Shown in pieces: positions 2,677 to 28,054 of a stretch of DNA of 32,000 bases. The stretch is from a bacterium. GTDB taxonomy: Bacteria; UBP7; UBA6624. Made by a program: the position numbers and the translations under genes. Below the pieces are notes generated by a model. It had not been told where the DNA came from and searched no databases. It saw nothing but the letters and a program-made list of their open reading frames with translations. Location: the NCBI GenBank assembly GCA_002716355.1, contig PBAU01000002.1, positions 30,001 through 62,000 on the forward strand, written 5' to 3'. Numbering within the stretch: position 1 is the stretch's first letter; each line of letters opens with the position of its first letter.

Positions 2677-2687
2677 TTAATATTGCT

Positions 2688-2770
2688 GCCGGTGTGGCGG
2701 AATGGTAGACGCGACGGACTTAAAATCCGTTGTCCGCAAGGACGTGGGGGTTCGAGTCCCTTCGCCGGCA
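2688..2770 (+). tRNA. tRNA-Leu (anticodon UAA), class II with a long variable arm, no encoded CCA
   Basis: Hand-folded cloverleaf. Acceptor GCCGGTG/CGCCGGC (one G-U pair) with discriminator A. D stem GCG/CGC with loop GAATGGTAGA. Anticodon stem ACGGA/TCCGT with loop CTTAAAA. Variable arm TGTCCGCAAGGACGT (stem GTCC/GGAC). T arm GGGGG-TTCGAGT-CCCTT. Total 83 nt. Confidence 0.9.
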
Positions 2771-2781
2771 TGCTTAATATT

Positions 2782-7375: not shown

Positions 7376-7401
7376 TATTTTTATTGTACCGGTTTTTAAA
7401 T

Positions 7402-8679: not shown

Positions 8680-8682
8680 TTC

Positions 8683-8973
8683 TTACTGCAGTGTAATTTT
8701 ATTTATTTTTATCTTTTGATTTGAAAGTTTTTCGATTATCGATTTTTTATTTTTGTTAAGTGTTTTTTTAATAATTGGGTGACTTTTTTTAACACTAACA
8801 AACAACTCTTGGTTTTTAAGGTTTTTTACCTCTGATTTTTTATAGGTTGGTTCTATTTTTTTTTTCCACACACCCCTAACCAACAAGAGTTCATTTAAGC
8901 CTGGACTGATCTTATTGATTATTTTTTGAATTTCTTTTTTGGGTTTTATACTTTGTTTAAAAATATTTTTCAC
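8683..8973 (-). CDS. DUF721/DciA-like small basic protein
   Basis: 96 aa and Lys-rich. The pattern LLLVRGVWKKKIEPTYKKSEVKNLKNQELFVSVKKS..IKKTL......IIEKL...IKINKI matches the DUF721 layout (W..ivg....s....l..g.L.V.v.s). It sits in the classic position after dnaN, and its start overlaps the dnaN stop by 4 nt. Confidence 0.5.
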   Translation of the reverse strand: MKNIFKQSIKPKKEIQKIINKISPGLNELLLVRGVWKKKIEPTYKKSEVKNLKNQELFVSVKKSHPIIKKTLNKNKKSIIEKLSNQKIKINKITLQ

Positions 8974-10100: not shown

Positions 10101-10185
10101 AAAAGTTATTTTAAAGAATAAATAGGATATTTGTTATTTGATTAATTAAATTAATTTTTATAAAAAACTACTTCTACTACTATTG
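10101..10185. other. AT-rich dnaA-dnaN spacer with a trinucleotide (DnaA-trio-like) array; candidate oriC unwinding module
   Basis: The 85-bp spacer is very AT-rich. 10168-10182 reads CTA CTT CTA CTA CTA, which on the complementary strand is 3'-GAT GAA GAT GAT GAT-5'. It directly follows the run attaattaaattaatttttataaaaaa. I found no consensus DnaA box (TTATCCACA). Confidence 0.3.
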
Positions 10186-11496
10186 TTAAAAAAGAGTTAA
10201 ATTACCATTATTTTCAGGGTTAACATCTTGGTTAGAAAAATCTAAAGATATACCATGATTAATAGCAATTGATTTAACCTGACTTTTGAAAAAAGAATCT
10301 TTTTTAAGCTTTTCTTTACCCTTTTTTAACGAATATGTTATTGCAGATTTTTTAACATTTAAAACACGTGATGATGAGGCCTTGCAACCATTCGGACGAT
10401 TGCACAAAAGAACAGAAGCAGCCTGTCTAGCTAAAACAACCTCCCTGGATCTTGATCCAGAAAGTAGTGATGATTTTGAAACATTAAAAACATTGCAAAT
10501 TTCGTCTAATAGCGATGAACCAGGTAACGATGTGTCTGTAGACAATGCAAACGAAACAGAGTAGTCTTCAGGGTTTCCAATTGATTTTGACCAAAGAAAC
10601 CTGGTTGCAATCCCTTTTAGAGCCCTAACGTCAGCAGGTAGTTTTTGAAACAGGTTTGTAGGTATGGTGTCTGAATTTTTTTCTTTGATTATTTTTGAAA
10701 GCAATATTTCACGTTCTTTTTCTAAAGGCGGTGACATTTTTATTACCAGGCCAGCAGTCAGCCTGCTTATTAATCTTGGACTGAATTCACGAATTGTTCT
10801 TGGGTGTCTATCGGCAACTATAACAATAGGCCGTGATCTTGTTAAAAAGGAATCGAAAACATTAAAAAACTCTTGAAGTGTTCTTTTTCTCCCAATGAAC
10901 TTTTGTATATCGTCAACAAGCAAAGATGATTGGGAAAAAAAGTAAGATTTAAAACTGTTTAGATCTTTTTTTTCAACTGAATCAACCAACTTTTGTGTGA
11001 ACTCGTCAGACGTGAAAACCCTATCGTCAAGGTTTTTTGCTGCGATATTTAGAAGATGGGTTTTTCCAATACCGGGAGGTCCGTATAAAAATATTGGAAA
11101 CAATTGATTTTCTAACTTGTTTGTTGTTGTCGAAGCGATTGCCCTAAATGCATTTTCAACCCCTCTGTAAGGGTGAAAATCGTTAAAAATCTCTTTTTTC
11201 GCACGAGGTTTTTTTTTGGTAATGATAGGAACATTTTTTGGTATTTTCTTTGAAGAGATCGATTCGATTAATTTGAAATCTTTGTAATTCAAATTGATAA
11301 TAATTTTCTTCAACAGGCCGAAGTTTTTTTCTGCAACTTTAAAATTGTATCTACCTGAAGCAGCAAGAATAACAGTGTTTTCCTGAAAGGTGATTTTTGA
11401 AGTTCTCAAAAGCGATGTTAACAAAAAGAAATTGGGTTCTAGCTTGATTTTTTGGATTATTTTTTCTTTTAGTTTTTTGCTTTTTGAAATTTCCAT
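10186..11496 (-). CDS. dnaA: chromosomal replication initiator protein DnaA
   Basis: AAA+ core: Walker A LYGPPGIGKTHLL, Walker B LLVDDIQKF, and SRLTAGLVIKMSPPLEKEREILL (sensor/box VII region). C-terminal DNA-binding domain pattern REVVLARQAASVLL. dnaA-dnaN synteny. Confidence 0.9.
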   Translation of the reverse strand: MEISKSKKLKEKIIQKIKLEPNFFLLTSLLRTSKITFQENTVILAASGRYNFKVAEKNFGLLKKIIINLNYKDFKLIESISSKKIPKNVPIITKKKPRAKKEIFNDFHPYRGVENAFRAIASTTTNKLENQLFPIFLYGPPGIGKTHLLNIAAKNLDDRVFTSDEFTQKLVDSVEKKDLNSFKSYFFSQSSLLVDDIQKFIGRKRTLQEFFNVFDSFLTRSRPIVIVADRHPRTIREFSPRLISRLTAGLVIKMSPPLEKEREILLSKIIKEKNSDTIPTNLFQKLPADVRALKGIATRFLWSKSIGNPEDYSVSFALSTDTSLPGSSLLDEICNVFNVSKSSLLSGSRSREVVLARQAASVLLCNRPNGCKASSSRVLNVKKSAITYSLKKGKEKLKKDSFFKSQVKSIAINHGISLDFSNQDVNPENNGNLTLF

Positions 11497-14365: not shown

Positions 14366-15204
14366 CACAACATCCTAATTGGACAAAGATTCAAATCAAG
14401 CCTGGTTCTACAAAATCTCTCATTGACCTTTTTGCTGAACCGGAAGAGTTTAAGATAACCACTGTTTGCGAAGAGGCATGTTGTCCCAATTTGCCAGAAT
14501 GCTGGGGCAAGGGTACAGCCACATTTATGTTGCTTGGAGATACCTGCACAAGAGGTTGTCGTTACTGTTCGGTCAAAAAAGGAATACCTGAACCACCTGA
14601 TCCCAATGAACCCGGGGATTTAGCTGAAACCATTCAAAAAATGAATGCAAAATACATTGTTTTAACAATGGTTGATAGAGATGATCTGATCGATGCCGGT
14701 GTCAGTCACATCATGGACACGGTAAACTCTATAAAGAGAATCAACCCCACAACAAAAATAGAATTACTTGTGGGTGATCTGAATGGTGAACCTGAGCTGA
14801 TTAAAGAGGTTGCCCAATCAAACATAAATGTTTTTTCTCACAATATTGAAACTGTAGAAAGGTTGTATCCAAAACTAAGACCACAAGGCAGTTACCAACG
14901 CGCATTAAAAGTTTTAAGAGAGGCAAAAAAAACAGGTTGCCAAACAAAAACTAGCCTGATTGCCGGGATGGGGGAAACAACAGACGAGGTACTGTCTTTT
15001 TTGAAGGATATTAAAACGATTGAAGTGGATATTTTTACATCAGGACAATACTTGAGACCGTCACAAAACCAAGCACCGGTTATAAAACATCGCAGTCCAG
15101 AATGGTTTGAATTTATTGAACAGCAAGCAGAAATGTTAGGGATTAAATCCAAGTGCGGACCCCTGGTAAGATCCAGCTACATGGCTGAAACTCTATATAA
15201 ATAA
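14362..15204 (+). CDS. lipA: lipoyl synthase (radical SAM)
   Basis: Auxiliary cluster motif CEEACCPNLPECW and radical-SAM motif CTRGCRYCSV, both intact. C-terminal SSY. ATGA overlap with lipB. Confidence 0.95.
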   Translation: MTQHPNWTKIQIKPGSTKSLIDLFAEPEEFKITTVCEEACCPNLPECWGKGTATFMLLGDTCTRGCRYCSVKKGIPEPPDPNEPGDLAETIQKMNAKYIVLTMVDRDDLIDAGVSHIMDTVNSIKRINPTTKIELLVGDLNGEPELIKEVAQSNINVFSHNIETVERLYPKLRPQGSYQRALKVLREAKKTGCQTKTSLIAGMGETTDEVLSFLKDIKTIEVDIFTSGQYLRPSQNQAPVIKHRSPEWFEFIEQQAEMLGIKSKCGPLVRSSYMAETLYK

Positions 15205-15244
15205 TACCCCCCCAGGGTATAGTTATTTTTTTTAAAAAAATAAC
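15205..15244 (+). terminator. possible weak intrinsic terminator/attenuator between lipA and the E1 alpha gene
   Basis: Short hairpin TACCC-ccccA-GGGTA (15205-15219), followed by a T-run that is part of a perfect AT-only palindrome GTTATTTTTTT/AAAAAAATAAC (15222-15244). The stems are weak. Confidence 0.25.
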
Positions 15245-15259
15245 ATATAATTACCAGTT

Positions 15260-16399
15260 ATGAATTCGAAAAAAATAAATCAGAAACAAAAAAAATCATT
15301 TGGGGTCGATCAACAAACAGCATTTGAAGTTCTGTATCATCCATTATTGAAAGCCAGGTTGCTTGACGAAAGAATGGTCAAGCTTTTTAATCAAGGTAGA
15401 TTTGGTGGTACATATTTTAGTGGTTGTGGTCAAGAGGCAACAAATGTTGGTGCAGGTGTTCACATGGTTGAAGGTGACATACTTGCTCCATCACATAGGC
15501 AACTAGGGGCCATGGTTGCTAGAGGTATAACCGCTAAAAGAGTGTTAGCACAAGTTTATTCAACAGCTGAATCGCCAGATGGAGCTCAGCAGCACCCATG
15601 TCACTTTGGAGACCCGGAACTTGATATTGTTAGTCCCACAGGACATGTGGCGATACAGGTTGTTTTAGCTGCAGGTTCAGCCTACGCATATCTTTTAGAT
15701 GCGTACAGAAAAGGCGATGTGAAAATCAATTGGGACAAAGATGGAATCGTATGGGCTGGAAACTGGACGCTTAAAAAGGGATCCAAGCTCAATTGCGCTT
15801 TTGCATTTTTTGGAGATGGCGCAACAGCAAAAGGGGATTTTCATGAGTCTGTGAATTTTGCTGGAATACACAAATTACCAGTAATTTACATGGCTGAAAA
15901 TAATATATGGGCAGAGTCTGTTCACGTTACCGAGAATGTGCCTGTTGAGAGGTTAAGCGATAGAGCAGCTGCATATGGAATGCCCGGAGTTACTGTTGAT
16001 GGTCAGAATGTTTTTGAGGTTTATCACGCAGTGCAGGAGGCAGTTGAACGTGCTCGCTCTGGTGGCGGGCCAACCCTTGTTGAATGCTTGACTTATCGTT
16101 ACCATGGACATTCCATGATTGATCCAGCTGATTATCGAACAGATGAAGAGGTTGAAAAATGGAAAAAGAGAGATCCTTTAATTGTTTTTGAACAGGTAGC
16201 TAAAGAGGATGGGATTTGGAGCGATAAACTCGCAAAGGAAACAGAAGACAGAATCAATAATGAGATTGAAGAGGCGATTGATTGGGTTGAAGATGAATCA
16301 ACTAAACCCAAACCCGATCAATTCATTGATGTAACCTTTAGAGATCCAAAATTTAATGATGCAATTCGCAAGAGATGGGAGAAGAGAAAAAATGTCTAG
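15260..16399 (+). CDS. 2-oxoacid dehydrogenase E1 component, alpha subunit (TPP-dependent; PDH/BCKDH/acetoin type not resolved)
   Basis: TPP motif FFGDGATAKGDFHESVNFAGIHKLPVIYMAENNIWAES and YRYHGHSMIDPADYR. Confidence 0.9.
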   Translation: MNSKKINQKQKKSFGVDQQTAFEVLYHPLLKARLLDERMVKLFNQGRFGGTYFSGCGQEATNVGAGVHMVEGDILAPSHRQLGAMVARGITAKRVLAQVYSTAESPDGAQQHPCHFGDPELDIVSPTGHVAIQVVLAAGSAYAYLLDAYRKGDVKINWDKDGIVWAGNWTLKKGSKLNCAFAFFGDGATAKGDFHESVNFAGIHKLPVIYMAENNIWAESVHVTENVPVERLSDRAAAYGMPGVTVDGQNVFEVYHAVQEAVERARSGGGPTLVECLTYRYHGHSMIDPADYRTDEEVEKWKKRDPLIVFEQVAKEDGIWSDKLAKETEDRINNEIEEAIDWVEDESTKPKPDQFIDVTFRDPKFNDAIRKRWEKRKNV

Positions 16400-17423
16400 T
16401 AAAAATATTAGTTATATCCAGGCAATTACAGACACAATGTGGTCTGAAATGGAAATTGATGAAACGGTTTTTGTCTTAGGTCAAGATTGTGGAAGATATG
16501 GAGGCGTGTTTAAAGCCACAGCCTGGAGGTCGGAAAAAGACGGCAAACCTGATTTAAGTAAAAAAATGTATGATGAATTTGGACCATTGAGAGTTCTTGA
16601 TGCACCTTTGGCAGAAAATGCAATCATCGGTGGTGCAATTGGTGCCGCTTTGTCTGGTTATAGGCCAATTGCTGAGATTCAATTTATGGATTTTATTGAT
16701 TGTGCTATGGGCCATATCGTGAACCAAGCAGGCACTATCTCTTTTAAGACTAATGGTAGTTGGTGTTGCCCAATTACAATTCGCACCCCTTATGGTGGAG
16801 GTATTGGCGGTGGTATGACCCATAGCCAAAGCAATGAAGCTTGGTTTTGTCATGCTGGTGGTCTAGTTGTAACCGCACCCAGCACACCAAGAGATGCAGC
16901 AGGGCTTTTAAGATCCTGCATTAGGGCAGATGATCCTTGTGTGTATATTGAGCACAAAGGTTTATATCGAGCTATAACTGGTGATGTGCCTGATGATCCC
17001 AACTTCACTATTGAATTAGGAAAAGGAAAAGTTGTTCGAGAGGGTAGTGATATTACATTGATTTCTTATGGCGCCATGTTGCACAAATGCTTAAGTGTTG
17101 CAGAAAAACTTGAATCTGAAGGCGCCAGTGTTGAGATTATTGATCCTCGAACATTATGGCCAATGGATGAAGATTTAATGATTAACTCTGCTTGTAAAAC
17201 AGGCAGGTGTGTGGTTGTTGCTGAGTCACATGCGGCGTATGGTTTCACTAGCGAGGTTGCCGCAAGAGTGCAAGAGGGTGCCTTTTGGAACCTATTAACA
17301 CCAATTCGTACTATTGCAGGACCAGACACACCCTTCCCTTTTGAACCGGGAATGGAGGCTGCTTATCTGCCTTCAGATGATGAAATATACAACTCTTGTA
17401 AAAGAGCGTTGGGGGACGGATAA
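16392..17423 (+). CDS. 2-oxoacid dehydrogenase E1 component, beta subunit
   Basis: N-terminus ISYIQAITDTMWSEMEIDETVFVLGQDCGRYGGVFKAT, APLAENAIIGGAIGAA and IQFMDF. I trimmed the track start (16356) to the ATG at 16392, giving an 8-nt overlap with E1 alpha. Confidence 0.9.
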   Translation: MSSKNISYIQAITDTMWSEMEIDETVFVLGQDCGRYGGVFKATAWRSEKDGKPDLSKKMYDEFGPLRVLDAPLAENAIIGGAIGAALSGYRPIAEIQFMDFIDCAMGHIVNQAGTISFKTNGSWCCPITIRTPYGGGIGGGMTHSQSNEAWFCHAGGLVVTAPSTPRDAAGLLRSCIRADDPCVYIEHKGLYRAITGDVPDDPNFTIELGKGKVVREGSDITLISYGAMLHKCLSVAEKLESEGASVEIIDPRTLWPMDEDLMINSACKTGRCVVVAESHAAYGFTSEVAARVQEGAFWNLLTPIRTIAGPDTPFPFEPGMEAAYLPSDDEIYNSCKRALGDG

Positions 17424-18661
17424 TGCCAATTAAAGTTCCAGTTCCCGATCTAGGTGTTTCTGTTGTTGAAGCCAAAGTGGCCGAATGGAAGAAAAAAATA
17501 GGTGATGATGTTGTTCGTGATGAAGAGATTGGTATATTGGAAACAGACAAGATAACAACCCCAATTACAGCATTCAAAGAAGGGAAACTTGTAGCACTTT
17601 TTGCAAAACCTGGGGATACCGTTCCCGTGGGACAAACTATAGCAATTATCCAAAAAGTTGGAGAAAATTTATCCCAAGAAGATATTGATAAGTTGAATCC
17701 ACATGGTTCAAAACCGACACCGGAACCGACACCGGAACCGACACCGGAACCCATTAAAACAACTGTTGACACCAAACGTCAAGGCTCAAATCCCCAAACC
17801 CTTAAAACCAGTCCAGCTGTTAGAAGGTATGCGAGTGAGAATGACATTAACCTGGTTGATGTTCAAGGCACTGGCTCTAATGGAAGAATCCAAATGGCTG
17901 ATGTTTTAGCGTTTAAAAAACCAATCAAATCTACGGGTTTAAATTTAGAACCTGATAATACTGAATCCAGAAGTCCTGTCAGCAGCTCCATGGCTGTTAT
18001 GGCAAAACATATGGTTCACTCAGTGTCAACCAGCCCGCATTTTTTAATTGTTGATGAACTTGACATGACTGAAACATTGGCTGTATATAAGAATTTAAAA
18101 CCAAAATTGCAAGAAAGCGGAATCAGGTTAACACTCATGAGCTTTTTTGTCAGAGCAGCAGCACAAGCGCTTAAGGATTTTCCAAGAATGAATGTTTCTC
18201 TTGAAAAAGACACTTTGATAACCAAGAATTATAGAAATATAGGAATGGCAGCTAGTGTTGGGGAAAGTTTGATAGTGCCTGTTATCAAGAATGCTGATCT
18301 TTTAAATATTGAAAATCTTGCAGCTGAAATCAACAGATTGTCTATTGCCGCTCAGGAAAACAAATTAACAATGCAAGACATTACAGGTGGAACATTCACA
18401 ATCACCAATGCAGGCATGTTTGGAGGCCCGTTATTTTCAGCACCTATTATCAATCAGCCTGAAGCGGCTATATTGGGTATTCACACAGTGAAAGAAAGAG
18501 CTGTTGTTGAGAATGGAAATATTGTTGTAAAACCAATGGTTTATGTATCCCTTTCAAGTGATCACAGAATGGTAGATGGCGTTTTAGCTGTTAGGTTTTT
18601 ATGCAGGGTTAAAGAGTTGCTTCAGCATCCAGGCTTAATGGCAACTGGACCTCTTTTATGA
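17423..18661 (+). CDS. dihydrolipoamide acyltransferase (E2) with one lipoyl domain, PSBD and catalytic domain
   Basis: Lipoyl-lysine context ILETDKITTPI. (PTPE)3 linker. PSBD SPAVRRYASENDINLVDVQGTGSNGRI. Catalytic motif SLSSDHRMVDG. TAATG overlap with E1 beta. Confidence 0.93.
   Translation: MPIKVPVPDLGVSVVEAKVAEWKKKIGDDVVRDEEIGILETDKITTPITAFKEGKLVALFAKPGDTVPVGQTIAIIQKVGENLSQEDIDKLNPHGSKPTPEPTPEPTPEPIKTTVDTKRQGSNPQTLKTSPAVRRYASENDINLVDVQGTGSNGRIQMADVLAFKKPIKSTGLNLEPDNTESRSPVSSSMAVMAKHMVHSVSTSPHFLIVDELDMTETLAVYKNLKPKLQESGIRLTLMSFFVRAAAQALKDFPRMNVSLEKDTLITKNYRNIGMAASVGESLIVPVIKNADLLNIENLAAEINRLSIAAQENKLTMQDITGGTFTITNAGMFGGPLFSAPIINQPEAAILGIHTVKERAVVENGNIVVKPMVYVSLSSDHRMVDGVLAVRFLCRVKELLQHPGLMATGPLL
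17712..17751 (+). repeat. 12-nt tandem repeat (AACCGACACCGG x3.3) encoding the Pro/Thr/Glu linker of E2
   Basis: Read directly: aaccgacaccgg aaccgacaccgg aaccgacaccgg aacc. It translates to PTPEPTPEPTPEP. Confidence 0.9.
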
Positions 18662-20034
18662 AATATGACTTGGTTGTGATAGGTGCTGGCCCAGGTGGCT
18701 ATGTGTGTGCTTTACGGGCAGCACAACTCGGCTTAAAGGTAGCTGTTGTTGAAAAGAAAAAAGCGGGTGGAACATGTTTGAATGTTGGTTGCATACCATC
18801 TAAAGCTTTATTGGATTCAACAGAAATTTTTTCTGAAATTTCACCAGGGAACGAACATGGAATAGAGGTCAGCAAAGCTAACATTAACTGGTCGACCCTG
18901 CAATCCAGAAGGGAAAAAATTGTTACCCAATTAACAGGTGGTGTTGAATTTCTTTTAAAAAAGGCTAAGGTTGATTATTATCAAGGATTTGCAGATGTGA
19001 AATCTTGTTATACGGTTGTTGTTGGCAGGAATAATCTTGCAACTAAAAATGTTGTTTTGGCCACCGGATCCACACCTGTAGAAATTCCATTTTTGCCATT
19101 TGATGGAGAACATGTTATAAGTTCAACCGAAGCTCTTAATCAATTCAATATACCCAAAAGTCTTATTGTTGTTGGAGGAGGTTATATAGGGTTAGAAATG
19201 GCCAGTGTTTACAGCCGAATCGGAACCCATGTCACAGTAATTGAGATGATGGATCGGATTGTTCCATTGATGGATACAGATATAAGCAAGCAGTTGCAAA
19301 AATCATTAAGAAAACAAGGCATCAAGTTTAAAACATCAACCAAGGTGACCGATTGCAAGAAAACAAAAAATAAAATTATTTTAAATTTAGAAAAAAACAA
19401 AAAAACAAGCACACAGGAGGCTGATCAAGTTCTTGTTGCTGTAGGTCGTCGGCCTAATGCAGGGGGTATTAACCTCAATGCTTTAGGAGTCACAATGGAT
19501 GAGAGGGGGTTTGTTTCTGTAAATCAAAACATGGAAACATCCATACCTGGTATTTATGCCATAGGCGATTTGGTTCCAGGTCCCATGCTTGCACATAAAG
19601 CCAGTGAGGAAGGGGTGGTTGTTGCCGAAAGAATTGCTGGCAAGCAAACAACACTTGACTATAGCTTGATTCCATCTGTAGTTTACACACACCCTGAAGG
19701 CGCTTCTATTGGTAGAACCGCAGATGAGCTTAAAAAAGCCAACGTAGAATTTAAAACAGGTATGTTTCCGTTTTCTGCATCCGGAAGAGCTATGGCTATA
19801 GGTTGTACTGAAGGTTTTGTTAAGGTGTTAGCAGATTCCAAAACCGATAAGGTTTTAGGGGTCCATATATTAGGGCCGAAAGCTTCAGAATTAATATCTG
19901 AAGCAGCAATGGTGATGGGCTTCTGTGGCACTGCTGAAGACATAGGTGTGTTTATTCACGCGCACCCAACACTTTCGGAAGCATTAAAAGAAGCCGCTCT
20001 TGAAGCTTCTGGTCATGGTGCGATTCATACCTAA
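18658..20034 (+). CDS. lpdA: dihydrolipoyl dehydrogenase (E3)
   Basis: FAD motif VVIGAGPGGY, redox disulfide GGTCLNVGCIPSK, NAD motif VVGGGYIGLE, and C-terminal HAHPTLSE. Confidence 0.95.
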   Translation: MKYDLVVIGAGPGGYVCALRAAQLGLKVAVVEKKKAGGTCLNVGCIPSKALLDSTEIFSEISPGNEHGIEVSKANINWSTLQSRREKIVTQLTGGVEFLLKKAKVDYYQGFADVKSCYTVVVGRNNLATKNVVLATGSTPVEIPFLPFDGEHVISSTEALNQFNIPKSLIVVGGGYIGLEMASVYSRIGTHVTVIEMMDRIVPLMDTDISKQLQKSLRKQGIKFKTSTKVTDCKKTKNKIILNLEKNKKTSTQEADQVLVAVGRRPNAGGINLNALGVTMDERGFVSVNQNMETSIPGIYAIGDLVPGPMLAHKASEEGVVVAERIAGKQTTLDYSLIPSVVYTHPEGASIGRTADELKKANVEFKTGMFPFSASGRAMAIGCTEGFVKVLADSKTDKVLGVHILGPKASELISEAAMVMGFCGTAEDIGVFIHAHPTLSEALKEAALEASGHGAIHT

Positions 20035-20044
20035 GGAGAAAACA

Positions 20045-20224
20045 ATGTTTGGATTTATTTTTGCTTTAGGACCAACAGAAATTGCTTTAATTGCAGTTGT
20101 TGTTTTGGTTCTTTTTGGACCCAAAAAAGTTACAGAATTCGCAAGATCTCTAGGAAGAACTAGTGGTGAATTCAAAAAAGGACTTGAAGAGGGTAAAAAG
20201 ACAACAAAAGATAAAGAGGAGTAA
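20045..20224 (+). CDS. tatA: twin-arginine translocase TatA/E family protein
   Basis: MFGFIFALGPTEIALIAVVVLVLFGPKKVTEFARSLGRTSGEFKKG (the LFGPKK hinge is typical). AAGGAG lies 6-7 nt upstream of the ATG at 20045. The track start at 20000 overlaps lpdA. Confidence 0.9.
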   Translation: MFGFIFALGPTEIALIAVVVLVLFGPKKVTEFARSLGRTSGEFKKGLEEGKKTTKDKEE

Positions 20225-20233
20225 AGCTGCTGT

Positions 20234-20944
20234 ATGCAAGACAAAAAAATGCCTCTGTCCGAGCATTTTGCTGATCTGCAAAAAACTTTATTAAACAGTC
20301 TTCTTTATTGTTTTTTTGCCTCTGTTTTGCTGTCCTTTTTTCATAAGGAATTATTAATTGCTTTTCAAAAACCACTAAACAATGTCGGAATTACTGCGTT
20401 AAATGTTTTATCTCCACAAGAGGGGTTCCTCATCCCCATCAAGTTGGTTTTAATGTGTGGTTTAATTGTGGCAACACCTTTGATTGTTAGAGAGGTTACC
20501 TTATTTGCCTGGCCCGCATTAAGGCAAAATGAAAAACAAATACTTCAAACTTTTGTAATCCCAAGTTTTTTAATTGCACTTGTTGCAGCGTTTTTTGCTT
20601 GGCAGGTTTTAATACCAATATCAATTGAATTTCTGCTCAAGGCAACAACAAACAATAACCTACAAGCAACATGGACATTGCAATATTGGTTTGTTTTTGT
20701 TCAATCTATGTTGATTGCCTCTGTGGCTGCTTTTCAACTGCCAATAGTCATGGGGGTTTTAGCTAAATTCGGCTTAATTGACTCACATACGGTCCGGGAA
20801 AAAGGCCCACATGCAATTATTGGGCTATTGATATTATCTGGTTTTATAACCCCTCCAGATGTTGTCACGCAGATCATTATCGCCATACCATTAATCCTTC
20901 TGTTTTATTTCAGTATTTTCATAGTCAAGGCAAACGAGGATTAA
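20234..20944 (+). CDS. tatC: twin-arginine translocase subunit TatC
   Basis: N-terminus MPLSEHFADLQKTLL (TatC-type HL.ELR region). Six hydrophobic segments. ITPPDVVTQ (the conserved P.D..sQ motif). Confidence 0.88.
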   Translation: MQDKKMPLSEHFADLQKTLLNSLLYCFFASVLLSFFHKELLIAFQKPLNNVGITALNVLSPQEGFLIPIKLVLMCGLIVATPLIVREVTLFAWPALRQNEKQILQTFVIPSFLIALVAAFFAWQVLIPISIEFLLKATTNNNLQATWTLQYWFVFVQSMLIASVAAFQLPIVMGVLAKFGLIDSHTVREKGPHAIIGLLILSGFITPPDVVTQIIIAIPLILLFYFSIFIVKANED

Positions 20945-21013
20945 ATCTAAAATTAATTCAGGTTTTTCAATAGAATTAAAAAGTTGTAGATTTGTACAAA
21001 TGGAGGAAAAATT

Positions 21014-23335
21014 ATGGCACGAATAGGTGTTTTTCTTAGCAAAGAGGGAAAAGGTTTAGATCCGCTTAACCTACAAACCATTGCTGACAGATTGGTTGAG
21101 GAAGTGCAGGAGATAAACCATGTTTTTATACATGAAGACCTCAACACAGTTCAAGGTTTGGAAGCAATATCACAAGAGATCAAAAATCAAGATATTGGCT
21201 ATGTTGTTATCGGTTGTGGCTCTATTGATCAAAGGGAAGAGAATATCAGAAAAACATTGAATACAGCTGGCATTAACGAATACCTTTTGGAGGTTGTTAA
21301 TCTTAAAGAAATGGTAGCTAACGTGCATTCAGAAGAGCCCGAGAAAGCCAATGAAAAAGCTTTTCAGCTATTGAAAACAGCAGTTATCAAGGTTGAGCAA
21401 AGTAAACCTTTAGAAAAAACACCAATGAGGGTGGAACAACAAGTTTTAGTTGTTGGCGGCGGTGTTGCAGGCATGACTGCTTCTTTGAGAATTGCAGATG
21501 CTGGCTACAGTGTTGTTTTAGTTGAAAAGTCACCTGCATTAGGTGGAAAAGTTGCCTCTCTCAAAAATCTTTGGCCAAAACTCGAAGAGGCAGATGACTT
21601 AATGAGGAATCTTTCAATCAGTTGTCATCAACATGAAAATATAGTTATTTATGATTATTCAGAAGTTAAATCTATAGACGGAGTTCGTGGGGATTTTGAT
21701 GTTGAAATAGTCAGAAAACCAAGATTTGTTCAAAGTCAAAAAATTGTAAATTTTGAAAAAATTACAGAATCATTAAAAACGGATTTTCCAAATAAGCACA
21801 CCGGAGGCAGGACGGTGAACAAGGTTCTTTATCAACCATACGCAGGCTGTGTCCCACCATTGTTTTTGATAGACCCAGAAAATATAAATCATCCAGATGT
21901 CAAAAAGTTAATCACACTTGTTCCTGATGGAACTGTGAATCAGAACGAAAAGGAAAAAATCGTTCATGAAAAAGCAGGTGCTGTGATTATGGCTTTTGGA
22001 GCTGGGATGATGGATTGTTCTGGCTTAACAAATTTAACTGCTGCAAATAGTGAAAATGTACACAGTGCTAGTGATTTTGAATTTTTGAATTTCAAAAAAG
22101 ACGAAGAAATGTCGTTGTTATGGGTTGCAGATGCAGGAAGCAATGATCCCAAGAACGGTGTTGCTTACGCTTCCGAAGTGCCTTTGATGACCTGTGTCAA
22201 ACAGGCTATTTTTGCTAAAAAAATGTCTAATGGAAAAATTCACACAACAGTTGTTTACTCAGATAGGAGATCCAGAACAAAAGGATATGAAGAATTTATC
22301 AAAACCGCTGAGGAAAAATACCAGGTACAGATGGTTAGAGGCGCTGTTTCAAATGTAACTTCAAAGTCAAACGGGTTGTCTGTCAGCTTGCACGATTTAA
22401 TACAGGGCAAAGAGCAAAAGGTATCAGTTGACAAGGTTGTTTTGGCACAAGAGGTTGTTGCACACGATGATTCACAACATCTAGCAAGTATTGTTGATAT
22501 AGGTCGTGACGAAACAGGCTTTCTTGCTGAAACCCATCCTTCTCTGGAGCCATGTTCAACCAGTAATTCTGGAGTTTTTGTTTGTGGAGACTGTGCGTCT
22601 CCCGGTGATATCAGAGCTGCTGTTTTGACAGCTGAATCAGCAGTTGCTAAAGCTATGGCCGTTTTGGCCCAAAAAACAAGTGAGCCCTACAGGTTAAAAC
22701 AAAAAGATGAGCAACTTGCACGATTTGATGCTCCAGCAAAAGAGGTTTCTCCTGAGAGCTTTCAAACAAATGATGAAGGTGGCATGAATTACACAAGATT
22801 AAATAATGTTTTTGGTAAAACTGAAAGCGGTGTGTCCATACCAGCCTCACCAACCAGAAACATTGAACTTGCTGGTTGGGAGCTTTCTAAGTCAATTGCA
22901 GAAATTGAAAATATTTGGACAGATGCAAAAAATGACAACTGGGAACCAAGAATAACAGGATTTGCATCACAGTATGGTGGTTATCCACTTTTGGAAACAC
23001 TTGGAAGAGAGGAGGTTTCTTATTCATCTTGTTTTAGATTTCTGAGAGTGCGCTCAACAGCACATCTGGATCCACTCCTTGTCCTCAAAAGCTTCTTTAA
23101 TGGTGCAGATGGTGTGTTTATTATTGGTGGACCTTTAGGCAAAGGCAAGTTTCACAACGACAACTACCTTGCAAAAAGAAGATTTAAAGCATTAGAAGGG
23201 GTGCTTGATGCTGGTGGGATTGAGCCAGATAGAGTCAAGATTTTATTTGTAGATTCTCACCAAATTGATGAAGTTGCTGATCAGTTGCAAAAATTCCATA
23301 ATGCTGTCTCTAGCTTAGGCCCTTTAGGTATTTGA
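21014..23335 (+). CDS. HdrA-like FAD flavoprotein fused to a C-terminal MvhD/FlpD-like domain; canonical Fe-S cysteine ligands absent
   Basis: GGAGG lies ~7 nt upstream of the ATG. The bacterial HdrA N-domain pattern is recognisable but Cys-poor: IGVFLSKEGKG replaces IGVFiCHCGxNI, and EVVNLKEMVANVH replaces NIRExCSWVH. The FAD dinucleotide motif VLVVGGGVAGMTASLRIADAGYSVVLVEKSPALGGK and the C-terminal GVFVCGDCASPGDIRAAV are kept. The C-terminal 130 aa align to MvhD (see findings). Confidence 0.75.
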   Translation: MARIGVFLSKEGKGLDPLNLQTIADRLVEEVQEINHVFIHEDLNTVQGLEAISQEIKNQDIGYVVIGCGSIDQREENIRKTLNTAGINEYLLEVVNLKEMVANVHSEEPEKANEKAFQLLKTAVIKVEQSKPLEKTPMRVEQQVLVVGGGVAGMTASLRIADAGYSVVLVEKSPALGGKVASLKNLWPKLEEADDLMRNLSISCHQHENIVIYDYSEVKSIDGVRGDFDVEIVRKPRFVQSQKIVNFEKITESLKTDFPNKHTGGRTVNKVLYQPYAGCVPPLFLIDPENINHPDVKKLITLVPDGTVNQNEKEKIVHEKAGAVIMAFGAGMMDCSGLTNLTAANSENVHSASDFEFLNFKKDEEMSLLWVADAGSNDPKNGVAYASEVPLMTCVKQAIFAKKMSNGKIHTTVVYSDRRSRTKGYEEFIKTAEEKYQVQMVRGAVSNVTSKSNGLSVSLHDLIQGKEQKVSVDKVVLAQEVVAHDDSQHLASIVDIGRDETGFLAETHPSLEPCSTSNSGVFVCGDCASPGDIRAAVLTAESAVAKAMAVLAQKTSEPYRLKQKDEQLARFDAPAKEVSPESFQTNDEGGMNYTRLNNVFGKTESGVSIPASPTRNIELAGWELSKSIAEIENIWTDAKNDNWEPRITGFASQYGGYPLLETLGREEVSYSSCFRFLRVRSTAHLDPLLVLKSFFNGADGVFIIGGPLGKGKFHNDNYLAKRRFKALEGVLDAGGIEPDRVKILFVDSHQIDEVADQLQKFHNAVSSLGPLGI

Positions 23336-23338
23336 AAC

Positions 23339-24232
23339 ATGAATGAAATGAGAATAACAATCCAACGAGAAGCCAGAAGGCTTTTACAGCTGCAAAAAGT
23401 CAGCGTTGTTATAGGTTATGAGGTTGGTCCATACCCTGGCACGACCGCTCCCTGTTTCGCTTTCACCCCAGATGACGCTCAAAGAATTGTTTTCAATAGC
23501 TTTTCGTCTATCAATTTAGCCGTTTATCTTCCAGGCATTACTGGAAATGTTGGCATAGTGGCCACACCTGCAACTGTAAGATCCATCAAAGAGCTCGAAA
23601 AAGACGGCTTGGTGAATCGTAAAAATCTGCATATTATTGGTGTGAAATTTCCAGGAATATTAGATCCTCGACATTTAAATGTTGACAGAGAGAACGAAAA
23701 TACGTTATCAGTCAATGAGCATCCAGAAGCTTTATGGGAGTGGGCACTTCATGATCTTTACGAGGAGCCAGAAGATTATGACATACTTGTTGAGCCCAGG
23801 TGGATGAATGACCTCAGTAAAGCCGGCAAACTAAAAAAACCCACCCCAAACCGTACCAGCGTTGAAAGGTTAGAGCAGATGACTCATCACGAAAGAAGGC
23901 TATACTGGATGAGTTATTTTGAAAAACATAGGCATTCAGACCATAATAAAAATTTATTTCCTTCCACTTATGCGGGAGGAGACCATTTAGAAAAGTTTAA
24001 ATATATCAAATCTGCATATAGCTCGAACGAGCTTTTTTACGAACATCTTTCATGGGTTTACCAATCGATGGGTCGAGCTTCTGGCTTCGATCTCTCAGAC
24101 CTTACAGAGGACATGAATCAAATACCCCTTTCAACAATTCGAGCTTGGGCTGCTAGAGAGTTTAGAAAAAATTTTAATTACAGGCCAGGTGGGGAAGAGC
24201 CAAATCCATTACTGAAAAAGGAAAACATATAA
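23339..24232 (+). CDS. FrhB/FdhB-like protein, cysteine-depleted (one Cys in 297 aa); function unknown
   Basis: N-terminal half: ARRLLQLQKVSVVIGYEV........NVGIVATPATVRSIKELEKDGLVNRKNLHIIGVKFPG. This resembles the F420-hydrogenase-beta-like pattern (..vd.vig ... vavvGtPCqi.al..l......l.iGl.C.G) with both Cys substituted. It starts 3 nt after the HdrA-like stop. I do not recognise the C-terminal half. Confidence 0.55.
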   Translation: MNEMRITIQREARRLLQLQKVSVVIGYEVGPYPGTTAPCFAFTPDDAQRIVFNSFSSINLAVYLPGITGNVGIVATPATVRSIKELEKDGLVNRKNLHIIGVKFPGILDPRHLNVDRENENTLSVNEHPEALWEWALHDLYEEPEDYDILVEPRWMNDLSKAGKLKKPTPNRTSVERLEQMTHHERRLYWMSYFEKHRHSDHNKNLFPSTYAGGDHLEKFKYIKSAYSSNELFYEHLSWVYQSMGRASGFDLSDLTEDMNQIPLSTIRAWAAREFRKNFNYRPGGEEPNPLLKKENI

Positions 24233-24233
24233 C

Positions 24234-25256
24234 ATGAGCGACTATATTTTGTCAAAAGCTAAATTGAAATATTGGTTAGAGGATGTCAGAAAACGAAATG
24301 AACTATGGGCACCCGTTGGATCCAAAGGCGCTGTAAGTTATTTGAAAAATCCAAAAGGTGAAAATGTTGCAACAGATTTTACAAATAGTTTGGATTGTCC
24401 AAAGTATATATTTTGCCCACAGCAAGATGCCATATGCAACTATGAGATACAAGGAAGAGGCAAGGTTGCTATTGAGGAAGTTGAGCTCGATGTGACTCCT
24501 AGAGTTGTATTTGGCTTACGGCCACCAGACATTAGAGGCATCGAAATTCTCGATGCTTACCTGTTGAAAGATCAAATTGATCGGAGATACGAGGCAAGGC
24601 GAAAAAATACAATAAATATTTGTCTTGGTTACCATAACCCACCTCCTTGCTGTTTCGCAGAGTCTGTAGGTGTCGATCTTTTTCCCAAGAGTGGCTCTGA
24701 CATTTTGTTAACTGATATTGGTAGGAGTTATTATGTTGAAACACTTTCTGAAAAAGGAGATAGCCTGATCTCGGAACATTTCAATGAAGCTGATGATATT
24801 GTTCGAAATGAAGCCTGGGATATACAGAAGGGAAGTGAAGGAAAAACAAATTTTGATTTAAATTTGAATCGTTGGCAGGATTTCACTGATACTGAAATTT
24901 ACACTTTGCCGTATTGGGATGAAATTTATTTGGGCATTATTGCTGATTCTGTCGCAACCAGGTATTTTTACTCAGGAACTTATTTTAAGATTGTTGATGT
25001 TAACAGTGGAAACAAGGGCACAAGGTATAAAACCTGGACAACAATGTATTCTCCAGGCTTTTCAACATTGGCAAATGGTTATGACTACAAGCCAAGCCTC
25101 AAGGAAAAATTTAAAGATTGGATATTAGAAATGTTTCATTTTTTTCCAAAAAGACATGGTTTTATTGGCTGTTCAGGTGCGCACAGGTGCATTGCAGGCA
25201 TGACCACCAAGCATGACCTGAGAAAAATTATTTCTAATGTGGACTTTGGAATATGA
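24234..25256 (+). CDS. sulfhydrogenase beta-subunit (HydB) / AsrA-like protein with degenerate Fe-S motifs
   Basis: The N-terminal two thirds match the HydB/AsrA pattern: ELWAPV, CPKYIFCPQQD (PPKkfffP), RVVFGLRPPDIRGIEILD (iiFGvr.CDi.gl.iLD), YEARRKNT, CLGYHNPPPCCFAESVG (C....CFC.s.G) and DILLTDIGRSYYVETLSEKG. The two C-terminal CxxCxxCxxxCP ferredoxin motifs are absent. Confidence 0.7.
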   Translation: MSDYILSKAKLKYWLEDVRKRNELWAPVGSKGAVSYLKNPKGENVATDFTNSLDCPKYIFCPQQDAICNYEIQGRGKVAIEEVELDVTPRVVFGLRPPDIRGIEILDAYLLKDQIDRRYEARRKNTINICLGYHNPPPCCFAESVGVDLFPKSGSDILLTDIGRSYYVETLSEKGDSLISEHFNEADDIVRNEAWDIQKGSEGKTNFDLNLNRWQDFTDTEIYTLPYWDEIYLGIIADSVATRYFYSGTYFKIVDVNSGNKGTRYKTWTTMYSPGFSTLANGYDYKPSLKEKFKDWILEMFHFFPKRHGFIGCSGAHRCIAGMTTKHDLRKIISNVDFGI

Positions 25257-26029
25257 ATTTAGTACCAAAGATAGCAAATATAAAAAATACAGAACGGGAT
25301 GGTCGTTTAGGGTCAATATCATTTGATTTTGATGGGGACCTGAAGGCCGGACAGGTTTTCAAGATAGGGACCTTTGGAAAAGGAGAAACAACTGCTTGGG
25401 TCATAGATGCGGAAGATAAAACCGTAACCGTTTCGTTTCTGGATAACAACCCTGTCACACATAAAATCATGCTCCTTCCCACAGATGAATGCATTACTGT
25501 AAGAGGGCCATTTGGCAATGGTTTTTCACTTTTAGATGAAAGAAATATTTTATTAATTAGTCAAGATGATGGAATATTAAGCCAAAAGAAACTTATTAAT
25601 GATTTGCTCCAAAATGGTAATCAGGTCAGCTTGCTCCACTTCACCTCTTTTCCAAAAGATATATTTATGAGCTCTTCACTTAAAAAAGCTGTATCAGATG
25701 ACTCTCCTATCAATGGTGAAATTATCGATATGACAAAAAAAGGACCACAGGATTTAGATACGTTTATCAAATCTTGCATCAAGGCAAGTTACACCTCCGG
25801 AATAAACGCAGTGGCTCTATCAGGCAATGAGAATTTTCAGCAGTCTGTGTCGAGGGTTCTGGAGAAAACAATGATTAAAGATAAAAGCATACAAATTTTA
25901 TTTAATCGTAATTTTGTTTCAGGAATGGGTTGGTCTAACAAGGATCTTTACGGTACCACAAACATATGGAAAGAAGGGCCAGTATTTACATTAGATCAGG
26001 TTCGAAGATTCCCAGGTGTATTCATTTAA
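25253..26029 (+). CDS. sulfhydrogenase gamma (HydG) / AsrB / PyrK-like FNR-fold protein lacking nucleotide-binding and 2Fe-2S motifs
   Basis: LKAGQVFKIGTFGKGE (f.pGQf..l..pg.ge), ITVRGPFGNGFSL (l.vrGPyGnGF) and WKEGPVFTLDQV (C.dGPVF) place it in the family. LLISQDDGILSQ replaces llvaGGtGiaP, and NFVSGMGWSNKDLYG replaces M.CG.G.C..C. ATGA overlap with the upstream gene. Confidence 0.7.
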   Translation: MNLVPKIANIKNTERDGRLGSISFDFDGDLKAGQVFKIGTFGKGETTAWVIDAEDKTVTVSFLDNNPVTHKIMLLPTDECITVRGPFGNGFSLLDERNILLISQDDGILSQKKLINDLLQNGNQVSLLHFTSFPKDIFMSSSLKKAVSDDSPINGEIIDMTKKGPQDLDTFIKSCIKASYTSGINAVALSGNENFQQSVSRVLEKTMIKDKSIQILFNRNFVSGMGWSNKDLYGTTNIWKEGPVFTLDQVRRFPGVFI

Positions 26030-26795: not shown

Positions 26796-26819
26796 TAAAC
26801 TTTTTTCAGATTGGCTTAT

Positions 26820-27041
26820 TTAGACTTCCTCGTAGAGGATTAATGCACCCGATACAAACATTGGGGTCCTAACATCATCTTCTTTTGACGCATCCATGGT
26901 TACACTAGAGCCATATTTGATGTCAATAATTTTTACTTTAGATTTGTTTGCCTTTAACCACTCGTTGATTTCTCGATCAAGCGGGGGTGTTCTATAGCTC
27001 CCTAAGCTAGATTCCATAAAATGTTTTACTTTCATAAGCAA
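26820..27041 (-). CDS. small hypothetical protein (pattern reminiscent of the Cse60/DUF2758 family)
   Basis: 73 aa. The pattern MKVKHFMES....LDREINEWLKANKSKVKIIDIKYGSSV.....MFVSGALILYEE recalls small Cse60-like proteins. This is from memory only. The real start may be the third Met (27035). Confidence 0.4.
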   Translation of the reverse strand: MLMKVKHFMESSLGSYRTPPLDREINEWLKANKSKVKIIDIKYGSSVTMDASKEDDVRTPMFVSGALILYEEV

Positions 27042-27130
27042 ATCTTAATTCCAAAAACAAACAAACCTAACCCAAGAACAGCAGATTCAAAAATTAATAT
27101 CTAATTATTCAGATATAAAATTAAAAATAT

Positions 27131-28054
27131 ATGAATCGTTTAAAAAGCATAAATCTACGTTTTTTGTTGATGCCCTTTGTTCTGGCTTTTATTTTTGCTT
27201 TTGAGGATATTGACACTAAAGAGAAGTCAAGCGAGGAGTTATGGGTTGTAAATTTTTTAGCTGAAGGAGTGGTTTTACCACCCGGTCAGATAGATTTGCC
27301 AAAAATAACTATCGATTACACAAAAACTGACCATGCCAAAATTGCTAAGAATCTTTTGGGTGCAGACATAGAGGCAGAAACCTCTGTCGGTTTAACCAGA
27401 GTTATCGATCAGGGTTTTCAAACATATGCAACCGAGGACGGCCGAGAATTATTGGTTTTTCCTCATGGTGGAATCACATTTAACCATCCTTTTGCCGGGG
27501 TGCATGAGTTGTTCCCATTAACCCGCACACAGGCAGAAAGTGTTCTGGATATTTTTAATAACAATTTTAATTATTTTCCAGAAGATGCCTCACTGGTCAA
27601 TACAGGAGAAATTAAACATCCAGAATATCAGTCTTTCAACAACAGTCAAGGATTACCGTTTGGTTACATTTATGAATATGGGCGTTATTTTAAAAATGTT
27701 CTCATTAAAAATGATGTAGTCAGGGCTTTAGTGGTTGGCGGAAGAGTTTGGGAATTTTCATTTTCCTGGGGCGATCAGCCTGTTGAGATTGAAGACACTG
27801 AGGCAACAATAATCCCAGCATGGTCTGCAGTTAAGGATGCCATCGAGTATGCGTATAGGAATTTTTACGCTGGAGAATATTACGCAGATGTATTTGTTAC
27901 CAAGGTTCAACTTGTTTATACTTTTGATGGCCTACAGGAGGCATGGAAAAAGGATGAACCAAAAAGATTAGTTCCGGCATGGGTGGTCCAGATAAATAAA
28001 TCGAATGAAATTATCTTAGAAGCTTTCACCGGTCAAGTTATTCCCATTTATTAA
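27131..28054 (+). CDS. hypothetical exported or membrane-anchored protein, possibly with a PepSY-like C-terminal domain
   Basis: N-terminal hydrophobic segment LRFLLMPFVLAFIFAF. The C-terminal segment IIPAWSAVKDAIEYAY....VTKVQLVY......LVPAWVVQINKSNEIILEAFTGQVI fits the PepSY-type pattern (..A...a....v..v.l......paW.v......v.vdA.tG.v). Confidence 0.5.
   Translation: MNRLKSINLRFLLMPFVLAFIFAFEDIDTKEKSSEELWVVNFLAEGVVLPPGQIDLPKITIDYTKTDHAKIAKNLLGADIEAETSVGLTRVIDQGFQTYATEDGRELLVFPHGGITFNHPFAGVHELFPLTRTQAESVLDIFNNNFNYFPEDASLVNTGEIKHPEYQSFNNSQGLPFGYIYEYGRYFKNVLIKNDVVRALVVGGRVWEFSFSWGDQPVEIEDTEATIIPAWSAVKDAIEYAYRNFYAGEYYADVFVTKVQLVYTFDGLQEAWKKDEPKRLVPAWVVQINKSNEIILEAFTGQVIPIY

Follow-up and report, generated by a model that had tools for sequence, protein, structure and literature searches.

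A four-gene relative of the HdrA-Flx module with nearly all iron-sulfur cluster ligands replaced in a marine bacterium

Composition and ancestry of the cassette

We analyzed a 32,000-nt stretch of contig PBAU01000002.1 (GCA_002716355.1, positions 30,001-62,000; hereafter the window, whose coordinates are used below), in which four closely spaced genes, p1 to p4, encode relatives of HdrA and Flx proteins that have lost almost every cysteine expected to hold an iron-sulfur (Fe-S) cluster. The genes are separated by 3 nt (p1/p2) and 1 nt (p2/p3) or overlap by 4 nt (p3/p4), and their products are deposited as MBG97587-90 under the label "hypothetical protein [bacterium]". An earlier note, made from the DNA itself, had described this arrangement and the number of Cys residues in each protein, all of which matched exactly on recheck (Table 1). 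It had also named the proteins as homologs of an HdrA-MvhD fusion, an FrhB-like protein and HydB- and HydG-like sulfhydrogenase subunits. Profile hidden Markov model, Protein Data Bank (PDB) and fold searches uphold all four assignments.

The largest protein, p1, matches the NCBIfam HdrA2 model (NF040770) from end to end (residues 3-771 against model positions 1-774), although its scores against this model, NF041891 and NF041778 (389, 276 and 255 bits) are all under the respective cut-offs of 1100, 1300 and 1400. It aligns to HdrA (5ODC_A, E = 3e-68) and, without gaps over 130 residues, to MvhD (5ODC_D, E = 1e-19), and residues 647-769 correspond to the Pfam FlpD domain (PF02662, E = 5e-24, 85 bits against a gathering threshold of 22.3). 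Further Pfam matches above cut-off are Pyr_redox_2, FAD_oxidored and NAD_binding_8, with FAD-type Rossmann matches at residues 143-230. The third protein, p3, matches the NCBIfam ShyB/HydB/AsrA models and the β subunit of Pyrococcus furiosus sulfhydrogenase I (9NEZ_B, E = 3e-13); its AlphaFold model (predicted local distance difference test, pLDDT, 79; predicted template modeling score 0.81) is predicted to superpose over its full length on 9NF0_B (template modeling score, TM, 0.84). For p4, matches were obtained to PyrK/AsrB/HydG models and to 9NEZ_C, and none to Pfam FAD_binding_6, NAD_binding_1 or DHODB_Fe-S_bind. Sulfhydrogenase and Asr models (NF040829/33/35, AsrA/AsrB) score p3 and p4 at 16-68 bits, under cut-offs of 288-750, and no hydrogenase or AsrC partner genes were found near the cassette in the window.

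The assignment of p2 as FrhB-like is borne out even though no library model detects the protein directly: Pfam gives nothing at E values up to 1, PF04422 and PF04432 included, and NCBIfam likewise has no match. A profile built from p2 orthologs reaches proteins with Fer4 and PF04432 (FrhB_FdhB_C) domains at E values of 1e-20 to 1e-49, and relatives of p2 at 26-28% identity match PF04432. Sequence comparison with the PDB is marginal (E = 0.12 to F420-FdhB). The AlphaFold2 model (pLDDT 83) suggests the same family, with best Foldseek matches to 8RVU_E (E = 2e-8), a chain of the Elp-Hdr complex that we read as the FrhB-family subunit ElpB, and to 7BKB_E, FdhB (E = 1e-7), followed by FrhB, HCAR and Fsr, at TM scores of only 0.52-0.54.

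Canonical relatives of p2 in Armatimonadota and Latescibacteria lie in clusters with the order hdrC-hdrB-hdrA...mvhD-frhB-like-hydB-like-hydG-like, and their HydG-like protein has FAD_binding_6, NAD_binding_1 and DHODB_Fe-S_bind. This order is that of hdrCBA-flxDCBA, so the cassette corresponds to hdrA::flxD-flxC-flxB-flxA without hdrBC. Stepwise profile hits to proteins of the canonical clusters, together with a neighbor-joining tree, establish that each of the four proteins shares ancestry with a Flx/Hdr subunit and, at the level of sequence, that p1-p4 descend from a Flx-HdrA module. The "Hdr/Mvh/sulfhydrogenase" label initially given to the cassette therefore named the right protein families, while gene order makes FlxABCD-HdrABC the proper reference.

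FlxABCD-HdrABC of anaerobic bacteria (Ramos et al. 2015, as quoted in PMC12125255 and PMC6687939) oxidizes NADH, and the proposal is that it bifurcates the electrons between ferredoxin and DsrC. The cassette shares its families and their order (HdrA, MvhD-like FlxD, FrhB-like Fe-S protein, HydB-like, HydG-like). It differs in the fusion of HdrA to FlxD, in degenerate NAD(P) and FAD motifs of the FlxA-like protein, in the loss of cluster ligands described below and in its host, a pelagic marine bacterium with a pyruvate dehydrogenase (PDH) complex rather than an anaerobe. No hdrB (CCG-domain) or hdrC gene was found in the window or in any orthologous locus examined. The sequence argues against a complex that oxidizes NADH while reducing ferredoxin and a disulfide (DsrC). 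No earlier description of Cys-less Hdr or Flx proteins was found in the literature searched, which is no proof of absence, and the earlier note likewise knew of none; the cassette is apparently an undescribed variant of the known Flx-HdrA module.

Table 1. Coordinates of the cassette, its domains and associated features (window coordinates unless an orthologous locus is named)
Feature	Position	Strand	Remarks
p1, HdrA::MvhD(FlxD) fusion	21014-23335	+	773 aa, 9 Cys
p1 N-terminal domain, aa 1-135	21014-21418	+	HdrA cluster ligands replaced by S, E, N, G, V
p1 thioredoxin-reductase-like FAD domain, aa 136-555	21419-22678	+	FAD fingerprints intact
p1 inserted ferredoxin domain, aa 236-310	21719-21943	+	degenerate; inside FAD domain
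p1 C-terminal ferredoxin domain and linker, aa 556-640	22679-22933	+	degenerate; zero Cys
p1 MvhD/FlxD-like domain, aa 641-773	22934-23332	+	Pfam FlpD and 5ODC_D alignment
p2, FlxC-like, FrhB/FdhB fold	23339-24232	+	297 aa, single Cys
p3, FlxB-like, sulfhydrogenase-β fold	24234-25256	+	340 aa, 8 Cys
p3 invariant Cys pair C139-C140	24648-24653	+	within invariant motif GYHNPPPCCFAESVGVDLFP
p3 invariant C313 and C319	25170-25190	+	GCSGAHRC, remnant of CxxCxxC; low model confidence
p4, FlxA-like, HydG/PyrK fold	25253-26029	+	258 aa, 2 Cys
GGAGGA ribosome-binding site	21002-21007	+	6 nt 5' of p1 ATG
tatC	20234-20944	+	directly upstream of p1
tatA	20000-20224	+	between E3 and tatC
tatC / p1 start, locus L001	9327-10004 / 10001
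tatC / p1 start, locus L015	7000-7530 / 7527
tatC / hdrA start, locus L013	6903-7661 / 7627
Half-depleted cassette, locus L013	7627-12797
Half-depleted cassette, locus L017	3-4508
~70-aa ORF	about 26800-27100	-
~70-aa ORF, locus L001	15884-16096
~70-aa ORF, locus L004	10651-10869

Cluster ligands and remaining cofactor sites

To score ligand loss, seven Cys-poor orthologs of each protein were aligned against sets of canonical relatives, and a column was counted as a ligand column if at least 85% of the canonical sequences have Cys there. None of the 27 ligand columns of the HdrA part of p1, which in HdrA serve six [4Fe-4S] clusters including the FAD-proximal one, is retained, nor is any of the six Cys of the MvhD domain (gapless alignment to 5ODC_D), the 16 columns of p2 or the four of p4, where the [2Fe-2S] ligands are now S/T, S, D and W in the family (S, S, D and W in the window). 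Only p3 keeps some (C140, C313 and C319, 3/15). With the MvhD domain counted apart, 3/62 conserved Cys columns survive against 181/355 conserved non-Cys columns (Fisher p = 2e-13), the latter being retained at 45-77% across the proteins; with it included, 65 of the 68 ligand columns are lost, which would correspond to the ligands of about 15 clusters. The same disparity holds within the p1 N-terminal domain (columns 15-108), where 21/47 non-Cys conserved columns are kept against 0/5 Cys columns.

Individual motifs illustrate how complete the replacement is. At the FAD-proximal cluster of p1, the Cys have become D373, A386, P390 and L391, and both CxxCxxCxxxC motifs of the inserted ferredoxin domain are gone (now I, F, I, L and I, V, L, V). 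In the MvhD domain, FCCNWC reads FASQYG, VMCSG reads VRSTA and GGCHLGDCHY reads GGPLGKGKFH, while GADGV is intact. Of the 59 replacement residues, 32 belong to the set A, G, P, V, I, L, M, F and W, none of which can coordinate a cluster; most replacements are moreover invariant across the Cys-poor family, which points to an old, fixed loss with repacked cavities. The scarcity of Cys makes the result independent of alignment detail: p2 has a single Cys, p4 has two that are both non-conserved, and p1 has none in residues 528-668. Codon reassignment or selenocysteine was considered as a cause and rejected, as the replacements comprise 17 different residues and the LipA gene in the window uses normal Cys codons.

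That LipA protein is intact (CEEACCPNLPEC and CTRGCRYC), and an aconitase-family protein in the window has all three of its ligand motifs; the host therefore makes Fe-S proteins, and the Cys loss is not genome-wide, as the earlier note had argued. Its claim of a near-total, coordinated loss of ligands stands for 59 of the 62 columns but not without exception, since p3 is not fully stripped and has four invariant Cys, one of them (C139) new.

Seven Cys in total are invariant in all seven family members: C514 and C527 of p1 (the only two of its nine), C39 of p2, and C139, C140, C313 and C319 of p3. Three of these are gains that are rare or absent in canonical relatives: p1 C514, which replaces a Val invariant in canonical HdrA, the family-specific p2 C39, and p3 C139. 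The region around p3 C313 and C319 has pLDDT below 60 in the AlphaFold model.

The flavin and nucleotide sites have fared differently. The FAD fingerprints of p1 (GGGVAG at 148-153, E171, GG at 177-178, and G525...D532) do not vary within the family. The GGxGxxP motif of p4 for NAD(P) has become QDDGILS in the window and (Q/K/M)DxGxx(S/A/G) across the family, and the P-x-S flavin motif after G.GE is lost. The view that fold-diagnostic motifs had survived thus holds for the FAD fingerprint, GADGV, RGPFGNGF and GPVF but fails for the degenerate NAD(P) motif of p4. Invariance of the p1 FAD motifs across about 50% sequence divergence, against decay of the p4 NAD motif, suggests that the p1 flavin site is still under selection.

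Comparison with characterized complexes shows what these losses would mean for electron flow. In structure, p2 comes closest to the FrhB-family subunits of two methanogen supercomplexes, Elp-Hdr (8RVU) and Fdh-Hdr (7BKB), in which an FrhB-type subunit, MvhD and the HdrA N-terminal domain form the input arm as a unit (PMC12350162). In Elp-Hdr, electrons pass from the ElpB FAD through the ElpB clusters, the HdrA N-terminal clusters and an MvhD-type [2Fe-2S] cluster to the HdrA FAD (PMC12350162). The arms of both complexes carry FAD and a [4Fe-4S]/[2Fe-2S] chain; each such cluster site is gone in the cassette and, as every relay of the Elp-Hdr route is missing, electron transfer between its subunits is implausible.

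Other relatives differ from the cassette in similar ways. HdrA2 of Methanosarcina, a natural HdrA-MvhD fusion, shares the domain order of p1 from end to end but is an Fe-S flavoprotein working with HdrB2C2, whereas p1 has neither clusters nor HdrBC. P. furiosus sulfhydrogenase I (9NEZ/9NF0) shares the full β fold with p3, and p4 aligns to its γ subunit; in the cassette the α and δ genes, the clusters and the NADPH motif are missing, and scores reach 27-68 bits against cut-offs of 650-750. Residues 374-549 of p1 match PDB 6TJR (E = 1e-11), which we take to be the sHdrA-type reduced HdrA of aerobic sulfur oxidizers. On that identification, sHdrA resembles p1 in being a flavoprotein of HdrA descent, from an organism exposed to oxygen, that has shed its ferredoxin domains. 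One [4Fe-4S] cluster remains in sHdrA, which has HdrB/C-like partners, whereas p1 has no cluster at all and Flx-type partners instead.

Distribution, selection and a half-depleted sister lineage

The Cys-poor family is rare. Among 5.8 billion sequences, p1-like proteins without Fer4 fall into only five clusters at 90% identity, beyond which come ordinary HdrAs at about 30% identity, and full-length p4-family clusters number only two among 1.84 billion (1.84e9) representatives. A pattern-based scan of 185,579 GTDB species representatives found at least three among the matches listed. Near-identical copies occur in metagenome-assembled genomes from Tara (labelled Gemmatimonadota by one depositor) and in Tara gene catalogues, including the 0.45-0.8 µm fraction of the deep chlorophyll maximum (DCM). 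Other members stem from the Black Sea and from samples whose numbers fall in the bioGEOTRACES range. An assignment of the lineage to Marinamargulisbacteria was considered and gained no support.

Reading frames and gene order are intact in seven lineages (Tara, bioGEOTRACES-numbered, Joint Genome Institute (JGI) and Black Sea assemblies). The cassette is syntenic in three groups, namely the window group (76-91% identity), a group represented by NIOZ-UU106 (locus L001; about 50%) and locus L015, and the translational coupling of the four genes is conserved along with synteny across the family. These three groups share the neighborhood lipB-lipA-PDH E1αβ-E2-E3-tatA-tatC-cassette, convergent with rsmA. 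Horizontal transfer was considered and rejected, given a GC content like that of the neighboring genes and synteny conserved across the clade. Between the window and NIOZ-UU106, identity is 60% for p2, 56% for p3 and 51% for p1, compared with 54% for PDH E3 and 33% for TatC.

Ratios of nonsynonymous to synonymous substitution (dN/dS, Nei-Gojobori) are 0.045-0.08 for p1 (0.045-0.05 in the least saturated pairs), about 0.02 for p2, 0.02-0.04 for p3 and 0.06-0.09 for p4 (0.06-0.08 in the least saturated pairs), all rough because dS is high (1-1.6) and near saturation, with a bias upward rather than downward. Controls in the least saturated pairs give 0.04-0.06 for E3 and 0.05-0.09 for TatC; overall, the cassette spans 0.02-0.09 against 0.04-0.13 for E3 and TatC. 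Low dN/dS and intact frames indicate that these are not pseudogenes. Purifying selection and intact Cys-poor orthologs bear out the earlier note's argument against decay.

The p1 of locus L015 (7527-10004) reaches 825 aa through a Pro/Glu-rich insertion (PPEAPPEAPPEEPP) into the linker that precedes its MvhD domain. A GPTGG...RxSD segment, present in L001 and L015, has been deleted in the window group.

Among Fe-S-bearing relatives, those closest to p2 (33-35% identity) are encoded by "bacterium JZ-2024 1" (loci L013 and L014) and on a JGI contig (L017). In the former the order is tatC-hdrA (655 aa)-mvhD (139 aa)-frhB-like-hydB-like-hydG-like; L017 is a short contig that starts within hdrA and continues in the same order. 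As in the window, hdrBC are lacking, the cassette follows tatC in L013/L014 and the FAD-proximal Cys are gone; unlike in p1, HdrA and MvhD are encoded separately in L013/L014. As far as can be told, this cassette is also undescribed. It keeps 37/62 ligand columns (about 60%), distributed as 12/27 in HdrA, 13/16 in the FrhB-like, 8/15 in the HydB-like and 4/4 in the HydG-like protein. HdrA retains its C-terminal ferredoxin domain and one further cluster, the FrhB-like protein most of its clusters and the HydB-like protein two, while the HydG-like (FlxA-like) protein keeps its [2Fe-2S] site next to a degenerate NAD motif (QNSGLVP). The JZ-2024 HdrA lacks the N-terminal and FAD-proximal clusters. 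This half-depleted cassette is thus itself an uncommon form of Flx/Hdr.

In the neighbor-joining tree, the Cys-poor clade is sister to these intermediates and outside the canonical proteins; the existence of a half-depleted sister lineage means that ligands were lost stepwise. All four FAD-proximal columns of the sister HdrA lack Cys (D, A, P, L, against D, A/V, P, L in the Cys-poor family); two of these substitutions match the window, and the other two match the Cys-poor family at those columns (DVGAED...PYASEYPLM against DAGSND...AYASEVPLM in the window). This loss therefore predates the split of the two lineages. Later losses were partly independent, as p3 column 187 is Cys in the marine clade and Asp in JZ-2024. 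Because the sister, with many clusters left, already lacks the FAD-proximal ligands, canonical bifurcation had probably been given up by the time of the immediate ancestor.

Candidate functions and genomic surroundings

The cassette derives from the hdrA-flxDCBA module of an NADH-dependent, bifurcating FlxABCD-HdrABC complex. The small clade of uncultured pelagic bacteria that carries it has HdrA fused to FlxD and no hdrBC; essentially all cluster ligands have disappeared, stepwise, from the four proteins, whose genes are under purifying selection as strong as that on PDH E3. The four proteins may still fold and assemble as an HdrA-centred complex, in which the HdrA-type FAD would be the sole occupied cofactor site and the FlxA-like subunit would no longer take NAD(P)H or FAD. 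Electrons could then not move between subunits for want of clusters, which would preclude both bifurcation and NADH oxidation and imply that selection maintains the complex for another task, be it an FAD reaction at a single site of the HdrA part or something non-catalytic. We give an even chance to the specific version in which p1 is a flavin-only enzyme and the three Flx-derived proteins are its structural partners. A repurposed, flavin-only or non-redox complex, as first suggested in the earlier note, still appears to be the best reading of the locus.

Four points weigh against it. Retention of FAD by p1 is judged from sequence motifs. In p3, a metal site might persist at the four invariant Cys. 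The canonical reference sets behind the ligand columns are small (10-44 sequences) and were recruited from hits to the query. Finally, the one-to-one mapping onto FlxA, FlxB, FlxC and FlxD is our assumption, made largely from gene order.

A somewhat improbable alternative is that the complex has no functional flavin either and serves as a non-catalytic scaffold, chaperone or regulator, possibly together with Tat (twin-arginine translocation) export. The sole neighbor common to Cys-poor and intermediate cassettes is tatC, whose stop overlaps the start of hdrA or p1 in three of four sublineages (L001, L015 and L013/L014; by 4, 4 and 35 nt). This linkage could mean that the cassette works together with Tat export, or synteny alone could have been inherited; in the window lineage the two genes are 69 nt apart. 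It also fits a non-catalytic role that p2 and p3, which have no plausible cofactor, are the most conserved subunits, and there is a precedent in ElpA, a subunit kept in an Hdr supercomplex without its molybdopterin (PMC12350162). A complex indifferent to flavin does not readily account for FAD fingerprints in p1 that stay invariant while the p4 NAD motif decays.

The invariant Cys raise another alternative, which we regard as unlikely: a reduced redox enzyme that combines FAD with a residual metal or thiol center in p3 (C139, C140, C313 and C319), perhaps with p1 C514. Seven invariant Cys, three of them gained, speak for such a center, as does the retention in p3 of 3/15 ligand columns, a number significantly below that of the non-Cys columns yet not zero. 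The retained p3 Cys derive, however, from two different ancestral cluster sites. The chemistry that we would imagine for this enzyme, improbable in the same measure, is a short-range thiol/disulfide or single-center reaction, for example on a lipoyl or dithiol substrate of the adjacent LipB-LipA-PDH system. The cassette lies downstream of lipB-lipA-PDH with no terminator-like site between: a promoter/terminator scan, itself not enriched over shuffled sequence, found none from PDH E1α to the end of p4 (15260-26029), so transcription may run through PDH, tatAC and the cassette as a single long unit. Against a disulfide chemistry, HdrB, the disulfide-reducing subunit of Hdr, is absent, and the intermediate lineage has no lipoate or PDH E2-E3 neighbors.

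Iron is scarce in the open-ocean water column, and Tara DCM gene identifiers and bioGEOTRACES-range sample numbers place the lineage in open ocean, which gave some appeal to the earlier suggestion of iron sparing, taken here as a complex that still oxidizes NADH or bifurcates. Losing all clusters abolishes the electron path rather than replacing it: the ligands of about 15 clusters are gone, nothing in the sequences substitutes for them, the NAD(P)H entry motif of p4 is destroyed and hdrBC are absent. Iron sparing with retained function is very improbable, and we consider it effectively excluded. Ligand loss by itself might also suggest decaying pseudogenes or an assembly artefact, for which there is next to no chance given frames intact in every lineage, dN/dS at or under that of housekeeping neighbors, invariant replacement residues and independent recovery of the cassette in many assemblies.

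Textbooks illustrate flavin-based electron bifurcation with HdrA-centred complexes, which are defined by their long Fe-S chains. We tentatively entertain, as a more far-reaching extension of the flavin-only proposal, that a bifurcation machine of about 15 clusters was turned, one subunit after another, into a complex that is free of clusters and has acquired an essential-like function. This function could be linked to lipoyl/dithiol chemistry of the adjacent PDH genes or to Tat, whose tatC gene is coupled in translation to the cassette over deep divergence, and would use only the HdrA flavin and a few newly fixed Cys. If this were true, no complete redox complex would have been known before to outlive its old function as a "fossil" architecture put to new use, here with an intermediate stage still alive. 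Tight conservation of four subunits after cluster loss indicates that the architecture can be selected for a purpose other than electron transfer. The natural series from canonical through half-depleted to cluster-free forms could help to separate structural from catalytic parts of Flx-Hdr and could show how an anaerobic enzyme is dismantled or re-used as a lineage enters oxic, iron-poor seawater. Annotation pipelines give such proteins labels such as "hydrogenase iron-sulfur subunit" and "4Fe-4S dicluster domain-containing protein", which would mislead metabolic reconstruction of these ocean bacteria.

Several minor observations concern the surroundings of the cassette. The listed TTG start of tatA overlaps the end of E3, and its true start is probably an internal ATG (MFGFIFALGP...). 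A terminator-like bidirectional hairpin lies 3' of lipA (15204-15220). An open reading frame (ORF) of about 70 aa on the minus strand, 5' of rsmA, is called in every orthologous locus and has no Pfam match; in the window it is followed by a 307-aa ORF (27131-28054) with no Cys and no Pfam match. Rfam and tRNA scans of the window found only one tRNA-Leu (anticodon TAA, 2687-2771, +), far from the cassette; it overlaps two mechanically listed ORFs (2092-2676 and 2563-3255), not both of which are likely to be genes. The genes gyrB, dnaN and dnaA, all on the minus strand, occupy 5327-11496 and mark the chromosomal origin region, with a cumulative GC-skew minimum near 9-10 kb, and some 10 kb separate dnaA from the cassette. 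A 445-aa protein without Cys (384-1721, -) has an N-terminal S-layer homology (SLH) domain, which hints at the type of cell envelope.

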